A stretch of DNA of 17,554 nt, from NCBI RefSeq assembly GCF_003668935.1, contig NZ_RAWP01000027.1, forward strand, positions 1 through 17,554. Direction: 5' to 3'. Positions 3,382-8,863 of the stretch are shown one piece after another (within the stretch, counting starts at the first letter, position 1; every line of letters begins with the position of its first letter). The stretch is from Corallococcus sp. AB032C (GTDB taxonomy: Bacteria; Myxococcota; Myxococcia; Myxococcales; Myxococcaceae). A model generated the notes under the pieces. The model worked only from the letters and a program-made list of their open reading frames with translations, had not been told where the DNA came from and did no database searches. A program made the translations under genes and the position numbers.

Positions 3382-5478
3382 TCAGGGGGCGCGGGTACCG
3401 ACGAGGACATCTTCGATGATCGTGCCCTCCAGCAGCGCGTCCACCACGTCCATGCCTTGAATCACTTCACCAAAGGCCGTGTAGCGGCCGTCCAGGTGCG
3501 GCTGCGGTGAGTGGGTGAAGAAGAACTGGCTGCCGCCAGTGTCCTTGCCCGACAGCGCCATCCCCACGGTGCCTCGCGCATACGGCTGGCGCGTCATCTC
3601 GCAGCGGATGGAGTAGCCAGGCCCACCCTCCCCGTCTCCGCGCGGATCTCCGCCCTGCGCGACGAAGTCCGGCACCACGCGGTGGAAGGTGATGCCCCGG
3701 AAGTAGCCCTGCTTCGCGAGCGCCATCAGGTTGCCGCCCGTGAGCGGCGCATCCGGATCCAACAGGACGGTGATGTCGCCCTTGCGCGTGCGCAGCGTGA
3801 GCGTCGTGCCGGAGGGCGCTGCCGGCGGACGGTACGTCTCCGGAGGCAGCTCCACGCGGGAAGAGCGGACCGGCGCTCCCGTGAGCGTGGTGAGGGACTC
3901 GGCCGCGATCCGGCGCACGTTGGCGTGTGGATGGGTCAGCCATTCGCGCATGCGGGGTTCCGCCGCGAGGCCCTTCAACGCGACGAGCGCGCCAGCCACC
4001 GCCTCCGCCAGGTCCGGCTCCTTGGGGACGCGGTCGGCCAGGGCCTCCAGCGCGGGCAGGGCTTCGGCGTCCTTCAGCTTGCCGGCGGCGGACGCGGCCA
4101 GTCCCGCCACCACCGCGTCCCCTCCTCCGATGAGCGCGCGAATGGGCGCCAGCGCTTCGGGCACGGGGCGCTCGGAGAGGACGTCCAGCGCGGCGCCGCG
4201 CACGATGGGGCTCACGTGGTCCAGGTAGGGCACCGCGAACGCAGCGCCGGTGGGCTGCCCCTTGAACTGCGCCACCTCGTGCAGTCCCAGCGCGAGCCAT
4301 CGGGCTTCGGGGACGCGGCCGTAGCCGCACTGGAGGACCTGCTCCAGAGTGCCCAGTTGTCGGTCCATCGCCGCCGCGAACCGGCAGTCCAGCCAGGCGA
4401 GGTCCGTGTGGGCTTCGTCGGACACGGCGGTGCGGTCTGCTTCCGCCAGCGCACTCCTCATTCGCGACAACACCGGCCGGCCCTGGAGCGGAAGTCCCTG
4501 CTGCGCCACCGCCAGCAACACGTGGCCTTTCGCCGCCTTCCCCTCCGCCACCTGCTTCGCCAGGTGCGACTGGCCTTCCAGTGCGCTCAGCGGGGCACAG
4601 GGTGAGCCGGCCTCGCACTTCGCGGCGAGCTTCGCCAGCGCACGCGCCACCTCCGCCGACGTGCGGGACGTGGCTTCGCCCAACATCAGGTTCAGCGCCA
4701 GCGCGTCCCGCGGGCTGCCCAGGTCGCCCAGGCTCTTCACGCACGGGGCCATCACATCCGGTATCGAATTGGCAACGCAGGAGCGGAGCGCATCCACGCC
4801 GTCCAGCCGCTTCGACGCAGCCAGAAGGTACGCCCCGGCGACGTTCACTTCGCTCCGCAAGCGGGGATCCAGCAGCGCGCGGATCGTCTCCAGGGGGACG
4901 TTCGCCACGGCCGCGGGTCCGGCCTTGCGCGCGGCCACGCCCAACGCCGTCGCCGCGGCCTCGGCCCAGGGGCCATTGGCCGGAGACAGTCGGGCCGTCA
5001 GCACCTCCACGGCGCCAGGCGTGGCCAGCTTGCCCAGGGACTCCAGCAGCGTGTCGTGCACCCGGGCGTAGGCTTCCGAGGCCTCGGCGCGCACCAGCGC
5101 TTCCGTGAGCGCCGCCCGTGCGGCCTCCGGAAGCGGCTCCCACGACTGCGCCAGCTCACCCGCCGCGAAGGCGGCCTCGTCGCGCACGGCAGTGCGCCGC
5201 GCCGTCAGCCCGGCGAGGACGGCCTCCAGCGTCTCCACGTCCTGGATCCGCGCCAGGGCCCGGAGGGCGCGCACGCGCACGGCCCAATCCGGCGCGGAGG
5301 TGGCGAACCGCACCAGGTCCCCGCCTCCCAGGGAGCGGCGGTCCTCCCAGTCCTGGATCCGCTCGATGGCCTTCGAGGGCTCGACCGGGGGCGGAGGCAC
5401 GTCGGGCGTCGGCACCGAGCGGACACAGGCGCTCGCGAGGAGGAATCCGGCGGACACGGCGGCGGGCAGGCGGGCCAT
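3382..5478 (-). CDS. Secreted protein (possible lipoprotein) with an N-terminal HEAT/PBS-lyase-like alpha-helical repeat region fused to a C-terminal cyclophilin-type peptidyl-prolyl cis-trans isomerase
   Basis: The C-terminal ~165 aa match the cyclophilin core (FHRVVPDFVAQGGDP, GTVGMA, SGGSQFFFT, LDGRYTAFGEVIQGMDVVD). The N-terminus MARLPAAVSAGFLLASAC is a signal peptide with an AXA/Cys site. In between, ~480 aa of Ala/Leu-rich repeats (ARAL.ALA..., PALEALAD...) look HEAT-like. I chose ATG 5478 as the start. The 1065-aa track ORF that extends to 6579 is read-through antisense to the neighbouring low-complexity gene. Confidence 0.75.
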   Translation of the reverse strand: MARLPAAVSAGFLLASACVRSVPTPDVPPPPVEPSKAIERIQDWEDRRSLGGGDLVRFATSAPDWAVRVRALRALARIQDVETLEAVLAGLTARRTAVRDEAAFAAGELAQSWEPLPEAARAALTEALVRAEASEAYARVHDTLLESLGKLATPGAVEVLTARLSPANGPWAEAAATALGVAARKAGPAAVANVPLETIRALLDPRLRSEVNVAGAYLLAASKRLDGVDALRSCVANSIPDVMAPCVKSLGDLGSPRDALALNLMLGEATSRTSAEVARALAKLAAKCEAGSPCAPLSALEGQSHLAKQVAEGKAAKGHVLLAVAQQGLPLQGRPVLSRMRSALAEADRTAVSDEAHTDLAWLDCRFAAAMDRQLGTLEQVLQCGYGRVPEARWLALGLHEVAQFKGQPTGAAFAVPYLDHVSPIVRGAALDVLSERPVPEALAPIRALIGGGDAVVAGLAASAAGKLKDAEALPALEALADRVPKEPDLAEAVAGALVALKGLAAEPRMREWLTHPHANVRRIAAESLTTLTGAPVRSSRVELPPETYRPPAAPSGTTLTLRTRKGDITVLLDPDAPLTGGNLMALAKQGYFRGITFHRVVPDFVAQGGDPRGDGEGGPGYSIRCEMTRQPYARGTVGMALSGKDTGGSQFFFTHSPQPHLDGRYTAFGEVIQGMDVVDALLEGTIIEDVLVGTRAP

Positions 5479-5537
5479 GCTCGAACGGGCTAGGTCAATT
5501 CCCCGCGAAAATCCAGGGGTTATGGCGCTGAACGGGT

Positions 5538-5604
5538 TTGACAGCCGCGCGCTGGGGCCGGGAAGATATCGGGCCGTTTCCCCCCTCCCGGAGCACCGGC
5601 CCTG
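5538..5604 (+). promoter_or_regulatory. Possible sigma70-type -35 element (a perfect TTGACA at 5538-5543), a GGAG Shine-Dalgarno (5590-5593) and a candidate CTG start (5602) for the zinc-ribbon membrane gene
   Basis: A perfect TTGACA is rare in this GC-rich context. Any -10 element 17-19 bp downstream (GGAAGA / AAGATA) is weak. The GGAG-to-CTG spacing of 8 nt is ideal for translation initiation. Confidence 0.25.
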
Positions 5605-6549
5605 AACTGCCCAGGCTGTAATCGCAAGGTCGCGGAAGACACCGCCATCTGCCCCCACTGCGACCACATCATCGACGAGTCCTTCCTCGGGGGAGCCGGG
5701 GATGAGGGGGACTCTGGCGGCGATGACGAGAGCACCGGCGTCCGGCCGCCGCCGCGCTCGCGGCCCCCTCCGGCCCGCGCCGCTCCGGAGCCTCGCGCGC
5801 GCCCCGCTCCGGCCCGCGCCAGGACGGGCGCCCGCCCCGCCGCGCCGCCGCCGAGCGAAGACGCCACCAACGTGCGGAGCATGGACGACATCGCCCGGGA
5901 GAAGGCCCAACGTGCCGCTCCTCCCGCCCGGGGCGGTGGCGCCGCCAAGGCCGCGCCCGCCCGTGCGCCGGCCCGCCGCGCCTCGGCACCCGCTCCTGTC
6001 GATGAGGATGAGGACGACGCGGGCGACGCGGTGGCGGACCCCTGGTCCCGAGAGGCCCGTGAGCTGGAATCTTCTCGCTCGCCCATTGATGATCCGGAGG
6101 TCCTGCTGGACGACGCGCGCTCGTTCCTGGGCGAGCTGCAAGGCGGCGACCGCATCGCGTTCTGGGGCGCGACGCTGGTGGTGCTCTCCTGCTTCATTCC
6201 GTGGAAGGAGACGGCGGAGGGCGGCGACTTCCTGGGCCTCATCAGCCTGGGGTTCATCTCCTTCATCTTCGCCGTCGCGACCATGGTCTTCGTGGGCCTG
6301 CGGGCGCGTGAGGTGATGACCTGGGTGAACCCCATGCTGCCGTGGGGCGCGCAGATGGTCTGCAGCGTGGTGACCCTCGTCTGGTCGCTGGTGTTCCTGA
6401 AGCTCTCCTCGGACACCACCCTCGTGCCCTCGCCCATGGGCAACGCGGAGATGATGAACTCGTCGCCGAGCATCGGCTGTTTCCTGGGCATCCTCGGCGG
6501 CGTCATCGCGGTGCTGGGCACACTGATGGGCCTGAAGCGCCAGGAGTAG
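5602..6549 (+). CDS. Zinc-ribbon domain membrane protein: N-terminal C-x2-C-x10-C-x2-C ribbon, an acidic plus Pro/Ala/Arg-rich low-complexity linker, and a C-terminal 4-TM domain. The start codon is uncertain.
   Basis: The frame is open from the stop at 5539-5541 through to 6549. It encodes (L)NCPGCNRKVAEDTAICPHCDHII..., a long PARA/PAP-rich linker, and four hydrophobic helices (IAFWGATLVVLSCFIPW, FLGLISLGFISFIFAVATMVFVGL, MVCSVVTLVWSLVFL, IGCFLGILGGVIAVLGTLMGL). There is no in-frame ATG, GTG or TTG before GTG 5872. A CTG at 5602 lies 8 nt after a GGAG at 5590-5593. The 3' end at 6549 is firm; the 5' end is either 5602 (non-canonical start) or 5872/5881 (dropping the zinc ribbon). Confidence 0.55.
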   Translation: MNCPGCNRKVAEDTAICPHCDHIIDESFLGGAGDEGDSGGDDESTGVRPPPRSRPPPARAAPEPRARPAPARARTGARPAAPPPSEDATNVRSMDDIAREKAQRAAPPARGGGAAKAAPARAPARRASAPAPVDEDEDDAGDAVADPWSREARELESSRSPIDDPEVLLDDARSFLGELQGGDRIAFWGATLVVLSCFIPWKETAEGGDFLGLISLGFISFIFAVATMVFVGLRAREVMTWVNPMLPWGAQMVCSVVTLVWSLVFLKLSSDTTLVPSPMGNAEMMNSSPSIGCFLGILGGVIAVLGTLMGLKRQE

Positions 6550-6581
6550 GCCCGAGGATTTCGCTGCCGCGCCGGACATGA

Positions 6582-6605: not shown

Positions 6606-7541
6606 ATGTCCGACGCCACGCCCCTCTCCCGCCTCCTCGACGCGCTGGGCTCGGCCGTCGTGGGCCAGCCCCGCGTGCTGGCCGACCTGGTGACGGCCTT
6701 CCTCGCGCGCGGCCACGTGCTGCTGGAGGGCGTGCCCGGGGTCGCCAAGACGCTCACCGCGCGCAGCATGGCGGGGGCGCTGGGCCTGTCCTTCTCCCGC
6801 GTGCAGTTCACCCCGGACCTGATGCCCGCGGACATCCTGGGCACCAACGTCTTCCAGCCGCAGGAGCAGACCTTCCGCCTGATGAAGGGCCCCGTCTTCA
6901 CGGAGGTCCTGGTCGCGGATGAAATCAACCGCACGCCGCCCAAGACGCAGGCGGCGCTCCTGGAGGCCATGGAGGAGCGGCAGGTCACCATCGACGGCGT
7001 CACGCACGCGCTGCCGCCGCACTTCTTCGTCGTCGCCACGCAGAACCCGCTGGAGCTGGAGGGCACCTATCCCCTCCCCGAGGCGCAGCTGGATCGCTTC
7101 CTCATGCGCGTGCGCGTGGGCTACCCGGATGGCGACGCTGAGACCTCGCTCCTGCGCGCCTTCCACCAGCGCGAGGGCCGACCACCCGCCGTGTCCCGCG
7201 TGCTGGACGCCGCCACGCTGACGGAGCTGCAGGACCGCGCCGCGCGCGTCGCGTGTGACGACTCCATCCTCCAGTACGTGGTGCAGCTCGTGCGCGACAC
7301 CCGTGCACACCCCCGCGTGCGGCTGGGCGCGAGCCCTCGCGCGGCGCAGGCCCTGCTCGCGGCGTCCAAGGCGCACGCGGCGCTCCGGGGCACCGACTTC
7401 GTCACCCCGGACGACGTGAAGTCCGTCACGCCCAGCGTCCTCAACCACCGCCTCCTGCTCAAGGCCGAGGCGGAGGTGGAGGGCGTCACCGCGGACGACG
7501 TGCTGAGGCAGATGCTCGAACGGGTGCGAGTGCCCCGGTGA
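6606..7541 (+). CDS. MoxR-family AAA+ ATPase
   Basis: Walker A is present as LLEGVPGVAKT and Walker B as VLVADEINRTPPKTQAALLEAMEERQVTIDG. The sequence then continues ...FFVVATQNPLELEGTYPLPEAQLDRF..., which is canonical for MoxR/RavA-like proteins. Confidence 0.9.
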   Translation: MSDATPLSRLLDALGSAVVGQPRVLADLVTAFLARGHVLLEGVPGVAKTLTARSMAGALGLSFSRVQFTPDLMPADILGTNVFQPQEQTFRLMKGPVFTEVLVADEINRTPPKTQAALLEAMEERQVTIDGVTHALPPHFFVVATQNPLELEGTYPLPEAQLDRFLMRVRVGYPDGDAETSLLRAFHQREGRPPAVSRVLDAATLTELQDRAARVACDDSILQYVVQLVRDTRAHPRVRLGASPRAAQALLAASKAHAALRGTDFVTPDDVKSVTPSVLNHRLLLKAEAEVEGVTADDVLRQMLERVRVPR

Positions 7542-8863
7542 GCCTCGGGCGCCCCGTCCCCAGCGGCCTCGCCGTGGCGCTGTTCGCCGGAGCGCTGGTG
7601 CCCGCCGCGCTCGCGGTGGCGAGCCCCGCCTTCGGTTGGCTGGCGCTCGCGGTGGACGTGGCCGTCCTGCTCCTGTGCGCGGTGGACTTCCTGCGCGCGC
7701 CGCATGCCCGTGACGTCGACGCACGCCGCGAGGTGGAGCCCATCCTCTCCTCCGGCGTGGACAACACCGTGCGCTGGGAGCTGCGTTCGCGAACGGACAG
7801 GCCCGTGCGCGGCGAGCTGCGCGACGAGCCGCCCCTGGACGTGGAGAGCCACGGCCACCGGCAGCCCTTCACGCTGGAGCCGGGAGACACCACGCGGCTG
7901 ACGTACCGCGTGCACCCTCCCTCCCGGGGCGATGCGCGCTTCGGCGACGTGAACCTGCGCCTGATGGGGCCCCTGGGTCTGTGCTCGCGGCAGGTGCGGC
8001 TGCCCGCGGGTCAGGACGTGAAGGTGTATCCGGACCTGCGCGCCCTCTCTCGCGAGGCGCTGACGCTGGCGCGCGCGTCGGAGGCCGTGTCCGCGCGCAC
8101 GCTCCTGCGCAAGTCCGTGGAGGGCCGCGAGTTCGAATCGCTGCGCGAGTACCGCCCCGGCGACGACTACCGGCACATCGACTGGAAGTCCTCCGCGCGC
8201 CACGGCCACACGCTGGTGCGCACGTGGCAGCCGGAGCGCAACCAGCCGGTGCTGCTGCTGCTGGACTGCGGCCGTCACATGGCGGGCCGGGTGCAGGGGC
8301 GCCGGAAGCTGGATCACGCGGTGGACGCGGCGCTGCGGCTGGCGCGCGTGAGCCTGGACGCGGGGGACGTGGTGGGCGTGCTCGCGTTCGCCAGCGACGT
8401 GCGCACCTTCCTGCCCCCGCGCAAGGGCGCGGAGCACCTGCGCCTCATCACCGAGTCCCTCTACCGCGCGGAGGCCGGCCTGGAGGAGAGCGACTACGGC
8501 CGCGCGTTCGACTTCGCCTTCGCACGCCAGACGCGCCGCGCGCTGGTGGTGCTCTTCACCGACCTGGTGGATCCGGACGCGTCCTCCGCGCTCCTCACGC
8601 GCACGCTGGCCCTGCGCCCCCGGCACCTGCCCGTCGTCGCGTCACTGCTGGACGAGGACCTGGAGGCCGCCGCCACCGACGTTCCTGGCGACGCGACGTC
8701 CGCCTACGCGCGGCAGGTCGCCTCCCGCATGGAGTCCGAGTACCGCCGCACCGCCACCACGCTGCGTGACGCGGGGGCGCTGGTGGTGCGCGCACCAGCA
8801 CGCGGATTCGGCGCCGCTGCACTCAACGTGTACCTGGACGTGAAGGCGCGCGGGCGGCTCTGA
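7538..8863 (+). CDS. DUF58 domain protein (vWA-like MoxR partner) with two N-terminal transmembrane helices
   Basis: The DUF58 signature REYRPGDDYRHIDWKSSARHGHTLVRTWQPE...LLLLDCGRHMAG is present. The N-terminal ~50 aa are hydrophobic (two TM helices). GTG 7538 overlaps the MoxR stop (GTGA), consistent with the usual MoxR-DUF58 gene pairing. Confidence 0.85.
   Translation: MSLGRPVPSGLAVALFAGALVPAALAVASPAFGWLALAVDVAVLLLCAVDFLRAPHARDVDARREVEPILSSGVDNTVRWELRSRTDRPVRGELRDEPPLDVESHGHRQPFTLEPGDTTRLTYRVHPPSRGDARFGDVNLRLMGPLGLCSRQVRLPAGQDVKVYPDLRALSREALTLARASEAVSARTLLRKSVEGREFESLREYRPGDDYRHIDWKSSARHGHTLVRTWQPERNQPVLLLLDCGRHMAGRVQGRRKLDHAVDAALRLARVSLDAGDVVGVLAFASDVRTFLPPRKGAEHLRLITESLYRAEAGLEESDYGRAFDFAFARQTRRALVVLFTDLVDPDASSALLTRTLALRPRHLPVVASLLDEDLEAAATDVPGDATSAYARQVASRMESEYRRTATTLRDAGALVVRAPARGFGAAALNVYLDVKARGRL

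Follow-up and report, generated by a model that had tools for sequence, protein, structure and literature searches.

Where does translation of a gene begin when its conserved N-terminal domain lies ahead of every ATG, GTG and TTG codon in its reading frame? This question is raised by a gene of Corallococcus sp. AB032C (assembly GCF_003668935.1, contig NZ_RAWP01000027.1) that encodes a zinc ribbon joined to a membrane domain. We analysed it within a stretch of 17,554 nucleotides (nt) of the forward strand, referred to here as the window. Comparison with related loci makes it likely that translation of the gene, at 5602-6549, begins at the CTG codon at 5602.

An earlier reading of this DNA, made from the sequence only, had described a frame open from a stop codon at 5539-5541, with no ATG, GTG or TTG before a GTG at 5872. 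It had offered three explanations, namely initiation at CTG 5602, an insertion or deletion (indel) concealing the true start, or a decayed ribbon ahead of a gene starting at 5872 or 5881. The sequence facts hold. The TGA at 5539-5541, located inside the hexamer TTGACA at 5538-5543, closes the frame, which is then open through to the stop codon at 6547-6549. The first canonical codons in frame are GTG 5872 and ATG 5881. When near-cognate codons are also counted, the only start-like codons in frame ahead of the ribbon are ATA 5566 and CTG 5602. The in-frame ATA was absent from the sequence-only reading. The GGAG that this reading had placed 8 nt ahead of the CTG is at 5590-5593, and the spacing is exactly 8 nt.

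The CTG codon is invariant among orthologues

A protein search returned 96 relatives, nearly all from Myxococcaceae and Archangiaceae, and in ~70 of them the ribbon was fused to the membrane domain. A Leu precedes the ribbon (L-N/K-C-P-G-C) in every ribbon-bearing relative from these two families. The residues ahead of this conserved Leu vary with the annotation, being MPGRFPPPGAPA-, MLSAGALV- or MSGASQTQGAPV- or, in some records, extensions of 40-70 residues. Distant homologous proteins begin with M/V-[NKRQTDEL]-C-P-x-C, and their initial residue aligns with the position of the Leu in the clade. Comparison at the DNA level was performed on 26 clade loci, comprising the window, five Corallococcus loci, Myxococcus xanthus, M. 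stipitatus, Pyxidicoccus, strain JPH2, two Archangium loci, Vitiosangium and 13 metagenome contigs, and on 20 outgroup loci. The main clade consists of 24 of these loci, while two further CTG loci (L014 and L031) form a second lineage. The elements on which the argument rests are as follows.

5590-5593, plus strand: Shine-Dalgarno sequence GGAG, in 24 of 24 main-clade loci, with a spacing of 8 nt in 23 and 7 nt in one
5602-5604, plus strand: putative translation start codon CTG, to be read as formylmethionine (fMet); supported by the alignment of 26 clade loci and the outgroups
5602-6549, plus strand: predicted full coding sequence, 315 amino acids (aa; M-NCPGC...KRQE) plus the stop codon
5566-5568, plus strand: in-frame ATA, ATG in some Corallococcus (an ATA/ATG polymorphism among five Corallococcus loci), overlapping a -10-like box and probably not the conserved start
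5872-5883, plus strand: GTG 5872 and ATG 5881, internal Val and Met codons in the list of open reading frames (ORFs), used as the start by gene callers

The codon aligned to 5602 was CTG in all 26 clade loci, whereas in the outgroups it was ATG or GTG (20/20 loci). The codon just before the CTG was GTC, GTT, GCT, GCC or ACC in the orthologues and never GTG, ruling out the V of the VLN motif as a hidden GTG start. The sequence-only reading had looked to orthologues for whether the ribbon is conserved and fused and for the start that they use. The fused ribbon and the split between CTG in the clade and ATG or GTG outside it strongly support its first explanation, initiation at CTG 5602 behind GGAG-N8.

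Leu is not generally encoded by a single codon in these genes. CTG makes up 51% of Leu codons gene-wide, and three other conserved Leu columns hold 31 CTG, 26 CTC and 7 TTG codons. On a neighbour-joining tree of 20 sequences, Fitch parsimony placed 0 synonymous changes at codon 1; the remaining invariant Leu columns required 3, 6 and 7, and 25 invariant columns of four- or sixfold degeneracy averaged 3.8.

The signature of coding sequence is found from the CTG onwards. Across 21 loci, the entropy at the three codon positions was 0.41/0.26/0.65 in codons 2-28, with the excess at the third position expected of coding sequence, and 0.96/0.96/1.04 in the 30 nt before the CTG, where no codon periodicity was seen. 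Codons 1-28 are ungapped in these loci, with no frame-breaking indel. The G+C content at third codon positions (GC3), proposed as a check in the earlier reading, was 0.856 over 5602-5871, a coding-like value near that of the part of the gene not in dispute (0.894 over 5872-6549). The ratio of non-synonymous to synonymous substitution rates (dN/dS) of the ribbon was ~0.24, indicating purifying selection, and many synonymous changes were observed at invariant residues. The leader, in contrast, carries indels of 1-2 nt among the orthologues, and the distance from GAAGAT(G) to the CTG is 35, 36, 37 or 38 nt. In Archangium violaceum, 1 nt is missing between GGAG and CTG, 4-9 nt before the CTG; several proteins are annotated with 'RS' for 'GA' there, which suggests that the deletion is common to a lineage. 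Given these indels and the lack of periodicity, no reading frame is conserved upstream of about -4 and, since the first Cys is codon 3, the conserved start is therefore codon 1.

No canonical in-frame start ahead of the ribbon was found in the window or in L002, L004, L011 (which has an in-frame stop at -18) and L021. In the remaining loci, the upstream canonical candidates are non-conserved, overlap the Shine-Dalgarno sequence or lie inside the -35 box. The locus combines several features expected of a near-cognate CUG start, among them a canonical start at the aligned position in homologues, a coding signature from the CTG onwards, appropriate Shine-Dalgarno spacing and a codon more conserved than its amino acid requires. 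The comparisons suggest that CTG is fixed as the start codon throughout the Myxococcaceae/Archangiaceae clade.

A second metagenome group, at L014:1501 and L031:550, has a CTG at the start position, but its upstream region differs from that of the main clade and holds only the weaker motif GAAAGG. These two loci fall outside the main CTG clade in the neighbour-joining tree. The CTG may have arisen twice, or it may predate the GTG groups.

The CTG follows a conserved promoter-like region and a predicted leader

The region ahead of the CTG contains the following elements.

5490-5522, no strand assigned: near-invariant intergenic block CTAGGTCAATTCCCCGCGAAAATCCAGGGGTTA, 33 nt, from an alignment of 23 loci plus three more
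5538-5543, plus strand: TTGACA, conserved -35-like hexamer, GTTTGAC[AT] in 24 of 24 main-clade loci
5562-5567, plus strand: GAAGAT, putative conserved -10-like hexamer, [GA]A[AG]GAT 17-18 nt past TTGAC[AT] in 24 of 24 main-clade loci
5574-5601, plus strand: predicted 5' untranslated region, pyrimidine-rich, variable and unstructured, with indels, no periodicity and a putative 5' end

All 24 main-clade loci share one layout, in which TTGAC[AT] is followed by N17-18, [GA]A[AG]GAT, a variable pyrimidine-rich stretch, (A/G)GGAGC, 7-8 nt and CTG-AAC-TGC-CC. Were the GGA of the Shine-Dalgarno sequence a codon, the lack of variation at its third base would be surprising; high-GC genomes disfavour GGA for Gly. 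The leader folds no better than shuffled sequences (z-score +1.08) and has no Rfam match, which rules out a structured leader or riboswitch.

In the window, TTGACA matches the -35 consensus at 6/6 positions and the spacer is 18 nt, but GAAGAT matches TATAAT at only 3/6 and a consensus scan made no call. The TTGACA that the sequence-only reading had placed ~60 bp upstream is therefore conserved, while its -10 partner is a weaker, putative assignment. The promoter assignment draws on conservation in 24 loci and on the position of the -10 boxes in the outgroups. The TTG of TTGACA is often called as a start codon in other genomes.

The block CTAGGTCAATTCCCCGCGAAAATCCAGGGGTTA lies between the TTGACA box and position 5478, where the divergent HEAT-cyclophilin gene begins, and hardly varies among the 24 main-clade loci, which span two families. 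It had no Rfam match, and may bind a regulator or serve as promoter for the divergent gene.

The outgroup loci with ATG or GTG differ from the CTG clade in this region. Start regions were scanned in 19 of them (L012, L015-L016, L019-L020, L022-L025, L027-L030, L033-L035, L038-L039 and L047). A TTGACN hexamer (TGGACG in one), N16-18 and a NANNNT hexamer ending 7-13 nt before the start were found in 11, and no Shine-Dalgarno sequence was found within 20 nt of the start in any. The outgroup genes look leaderless because they combine a -10-like box so close to the start with the lack of a Shine-Dalgarno sequence. Judged from these sequences, the change of start codon appears to coincide with a change in the mode of initiation, from leaderless-looking outgroups to a leader of ~28 nt with GGAG in the CTG clade.

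Alternative explanations for the start

Translation could begin upstream at ATA 5566, adding M-S-G-R-F-P-P-P-G-A-P-A before L-N-C-P-G-C and making the CTG an ordinary Leu codon. ATA is a near-cognate start codon, and C. coralloides KYC2213 and C. exercitus SDU142 have ATG at this position. The equivalent codon is in frame in 12 of the 24 main-clade loci, with ATG in 9 of these, and the start is annotated at the equivalent position in the NCBI records P0001, P0002, P0115 and P0116. However, the 35-38 nt from this position to the CTG cover all three frames, and in the sampled Myxococcus and Pyxidicoccus loci it is out of frame. The ATA has no Shine-Dalgarno sequence ahead of it and overlaps the conserved -10-like box; if GAAGAT is indeed the -10 box, the ATA lies upstream of the transcription start. 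The Corallococcus differences in this region are non-synonymous (ATA/ATG, TCG/CCG), there is no codon periodicity above the CTG, and a start at the ATA leaves both the invariance of the CTG and the outgroup starts unexplained. We consider this start unlikely. A conserved upstream ATG (GAAGATG) as the general start is ruled out, since it occurs in all three frames and is ATA in the window. The same ATG could instead open a short upstream ORF that ends at a TGA overlapping the start (C-TGA), from which the ribosome would be passed to the CUG by termination-reinitiation. A CTG followed by A always creates this TGA in the +1 frame (5602-5605 in the window), and the upstream ATG opens an ORF of 12-13 codons ending there in 10 of the 24 main-clade loci, those sampled from Myxococcus and Pyxidicoccus among them. 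The loci named for this C-TGA arrangement are L007, L008, L010, L017, L032, L040-L042 and L044-L046. The window, with an ATA in frame 0 in place of this ATG, cannot form such an ORF, and neither can the 14 main-clade loci in which the frame differs. Its ATG has no Shine-Dalgarno sequence and is probably upstream of the transcription start site. Reinitiation was therefore rejected as the general explanation and is very unlikely here.

The gene could also start at GTG 5872 or ATG 5881, leaving the ribbon and linker (5602-5871) as an untranslated relic. These are the first canonical codons in frame, and most Corallococcus records (220-222 aa) and many M. xanthus records (205 aa) are annotated with a start of this type. 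Against this, the dN/dS, the synonymous changes at invariant residues, the GC3 and the 3-nt periodicity all mark the ribbon as coding. Its four Cys are invariant in 27 homologues, the ribbon-linker-membrane architecture recurs in ~70 proteins and codons 1-28 are free of frame-breaking indels. A relic is thus highly improbable, and the idea of a decayed ribbon raised in the sequence-only reading is rejected on the purifying selection, periodicity and invariant cysteines. The hidden indel that it had also raised would require a sequencing or assembly error in the window to conceal a canonical start. Nothing favours this beyond the oddity itself. Four other Corallococcus genomes, sequenced independently, match the window letter for letter from GGAG through CTG into the ribbon. 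The same CTG is found in another 21 loci, drawn from other genera and metagenomes. An error thus has a negligible probability.

Several points weigh against initiation at CTG 5602. The invariance of codon 1 is neither unique nor decisive alone, as 2 of the 25 control degenerate columns also showed 0 changes. The consensus promoter scan of 5380-5700 found no promoter, in keeping with the 3/6 match of GAAGAT. Were the transcription start site farther upstream, the mRNA would include ATA 5566, which some relatives have as ATG. In 9 of 24 main-clade loci this ATG shares the frame of the CTG, and a 12-residue extension is possible in those species. Measurements of CUG efficiency come from Escherichia coli only, not from myxobacteria. 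A literature search found no transcription start map, ribosome profiling or N-terminal peptide for the M. xanthus orthologue MXAN_4677 or any other orthologue, no initiation-site data (N-terminal peptide, start-site ribosome profiling or toeprint) for any myxobacterium, and no mention of MXAN_4677 or of a CTG start in Myxococcus. The Cappable-seq tables for M. xanthus (Kuzmich et al. 2022, PMC8844925) cover c-di-GMP genes only. With these points taken into account, we still regard initiation at CTG 5602 as the likely explanation.

Proposed mechanism of initiation at CTG 5602

From the comparative pattern, itself read directly from the alignments, we infer an act of CUG initiation, a transcription start site and a low-dosage rationale. 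A sigma-70-like promoter (TTGACA at 5538-5543, N18, GAAGAT at 5562-5567) would drive transcription from ~7 nt past the -10 box, giving an mRNA with an unstructured leader of ~28 nt. GGAG 5590-5593 would pair with the 3' end of 16S rRNA and set the CUG, 8 nt further on, in the P site. There, CTG 5602 would act as a near-cognate start codon read by the initiator fMet-tRNA, with a first-position mismatch between the CUG and the initiator anticodon. The predicted product is a 315-aa protein beginning M-N-C-P-G-C, in which a zinc ribbon at the N-terminus is followed by a disordered linker and four transmembrane helices. An intrinsically weak CUG, discriminated against by initiation factor 3 (IF3), would keep this membrane protein scarce relative to the downstream MoxR ATPase and DUF58-VWA protein. 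Reporter assays in E. coli put initiation from CUG at 1-2% of that from AUG (Hecht et al., bioRxiv 10.1101/063800), and initiation complexes formed on CUG have a lower stability than those with AUG, GUG or UUG (PMC11497404). IF3 bars non-canonical starts (PMC9723500). The CUG start here is presumably IF3-sensitive, as CUG is in general.

Public annotation of the gene

Annotated starts differ widely among near-identical genes, and the prediction of the sequence-only reading that automated callers would truncate the gene was borne out. Corallococcus records range from 220 to 326 aa but are mostly of 220-222 aa and lack the ribbon; P0004 and many others begin at the Met equivalent to 5881. Exact look-ups of M. 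xanthus records returned lengths of 205, 295, 299, 301 and 335 aa, of which the ribbonless 205-aa form is found in many. MXAN_4677 (strain DK1622) is the 335-aa form, over-extended into the divergent promoter. In M. xanthus, one annotated start is an ATT at -24 and the RefSeq start is a TTG 2 nt past GGAG. Overall, the starts used include ATT, probably ATA, the TTG 2 nt after the Shine-Dalgarno sequence and the TTG of the -35 box. A C. carmarthensis record starts at a codon that is read as ATA in L002, although the record and L002 come from different assemblies. The start MNCPGC is found in just two GenBank records, WNG42070.1 of Archangium violaceum and WNG52511.1 of A. minus.

The predicted protein combines a zinc ribbon, a linker and a membrane domain

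The predicted 315-aa protein is divided into three regions.

5608-5661, plus strand: predicted zinc ribbon, Cys3-x2-Cys6-x10-Cys17-x2-Cys20, supported by Pfam UPF0547, the invariant Cys residues and the dN/dS
5692-6081, plus strand: disordered linker rich in Ala, Pro, Arg and Asp, approximately residues 31-160, assigned from composition and an AlphaFold2 predicted local distance difference test (pLDDT) score mostly <60
6142-6543, plus strand: predicted membrane domain with four helices (6142-6189, 6226-6306, 6337-6408 and 6472-6543), from AlphaFold2 and hydropathy

The CPGC-x10-CPHC ribbon recognised in the earlier reading occurs in the peptide as LNCPGC-x10-CPHC. Pfam UPF0547 (PF10571) matched residues 2-23 at 29.8 bits, only just over the curated cut-off of 29, and C3, C6, C17 and C20 are the four cysteines that do not vary among the 27 homologues. 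This N-terminal four-Cys domain is thus, on its sequence, a predicted metal-binding zinc ribbon. An AlphaFold2 model built with 27 homologues as input also gave a confident ribbon, while pLDDT was <50 over most of residues 31-142 in the linker. The four transmembrane segments of the earlier reading agree with the model, which placed helices at residues 181-196, 209-235, 246-269 and 291-314, each with pLDDT >90, and a beta-hairpin at residues 271-287 between helices 3 and 4; a Kyte-Doolittle scan found only three segments exceeding 1.6. No Pfam family matched the C-terminal four-helix domain. A fold search with residues 181-314 returned only claudin- and connexin-like four-helix matches, none of them significant, the best PDB match being claudin (E 0.076, TM-score ~0.45-0.5 on the target). 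In the model, the claudin match appears to reflect the four-helix topology and the beta-hairpin in the second outer loop, that is, a topological resemblance only.

Gene neighbourhood

The neighbouring genes of interest are listed below.

3382-5478, minus strand: divergent HEAT-repeat cyclophilin gene with ATG at 5478-5476, a conserved neighbour (Pfam Pro_isomerase and HEAT_2)
6606-7541, plus strand: MoxR-type AAA+ ATPase gene, a conserved partner (Pfam AAA_3, 216 bits; synteny)
7538-8863, plus strand: DUF58-VWA gene (Pfam DUF58, 110.8 bits, plus VWA_2)

The order of divergent HEAT-cyclophilin gene, ribbon gene, MoxR AAA+ ATPase gene and DUF58-VWA gene is kept in nine genome loci and the window. 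The gap between the ribbon gene and the MoxR gene is 56 nt in the window, and in Archangium the stop codon of the ribbon gene overlaps the MoxR start (L041:4050-4053; L043:2547-2550). In the window, the GTG of the DUF58-VWA gene overlaps the MoxR stop codon by 4 nt (7538-7541). This arrangement suggests translational coupling within the three-gene group. A minus-strand ORF of 1065 aa (3382-6579) spans the whole ribbon gene, and the real HEAT-cyclophilin gene is only the part from 5478 down. The rest is probably a stop-poor 'shadow' frame of the kind common in high-GC DNA. A neighbouring gene for an HD-GYP response regulator was considered as pmxA and ruled out, since pmxA is 1707 bp.

Comparison with known systems and significance

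The classic conserved non-canonical start codon in bacteria is the AUU of infC, which encodes IF3. The CTG start described here would share with infC a near-cognate codon kept by selection across species, a normal Shine-Dalgarno sequence, weakness by design and sensitivity to IF3 (for the last point, PMC9723500). It differs in that the codon is CUG rather than AUU, conservation is seen only within one myxobacterial clade, and the product is a membrane zinc-ribbon protein rather than an initiation factor, is not known to act in translation and has no evident autoregulatory loop. The E. coli studies of CUG reporters (bioRxiv 10.1101/063800) and complexes (PMC11497404) concern the same codon, low efficiency and the mechanism expected here, an fMet-tRNA with a first-position mismatch. 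They used engineered constructs, whereas the CTG clade offers a native gene with the codon conserved at every locus. In commensal E. coli 8178, a non-canonical start tunes the lactose operon, with experimental fitness data (PMC11445065). That case is similar as a weak start codon setting expression in a native operon, while organism, codon and gene differ and the fitness data belong to E. coli. The protein resembles UPF0547 and MoxR-VWA systems in its four-Cys ribbon, which exceeds the Pfam cut-off, and in the MoxR AAA+ and DUF58-VWA genes downstream; in contrast to them, it has a C-terminal four-helix membrane domain outside any Pfam family. Judged by sequence comparison, the CTG start adds to the known cases of near-cognate initiation a new one whose conservation is unusually high.

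Among the public records for this family, many, including MXAN_4677, appear to be mis-annotated, with the ribbon lost or the N-terminus run into the promoter. Correct N-termini are needed for functional and structural work on this MoxR-associated membrane protein. The locus would represent a rare natural CUG start fixed across two bacterial families, set against outgroups that use ATG or GTG on leaderless-looking mRNAs, with a clean comparative signature, and may offer the translation field a native system in which to test why weak start codons persist. We tentatively raise a further possibility, which we hold to be less probable than its opposite, that the CUG is a selected regulatory device and not merely tolerated. 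It would have been fixed on the switch from a leaderless AUG or GUG mRNA to a leader with a strong Shine-Dalgarno sequence, and synthesis of the ribbon-membrane protein would then be low and dependent on IF3 or initiation fidelity. If this is true, the stoichiometry of the MoxR-VWA membrane system would be linked to the condition of the translation machinery, for instance in starving or developing cells.

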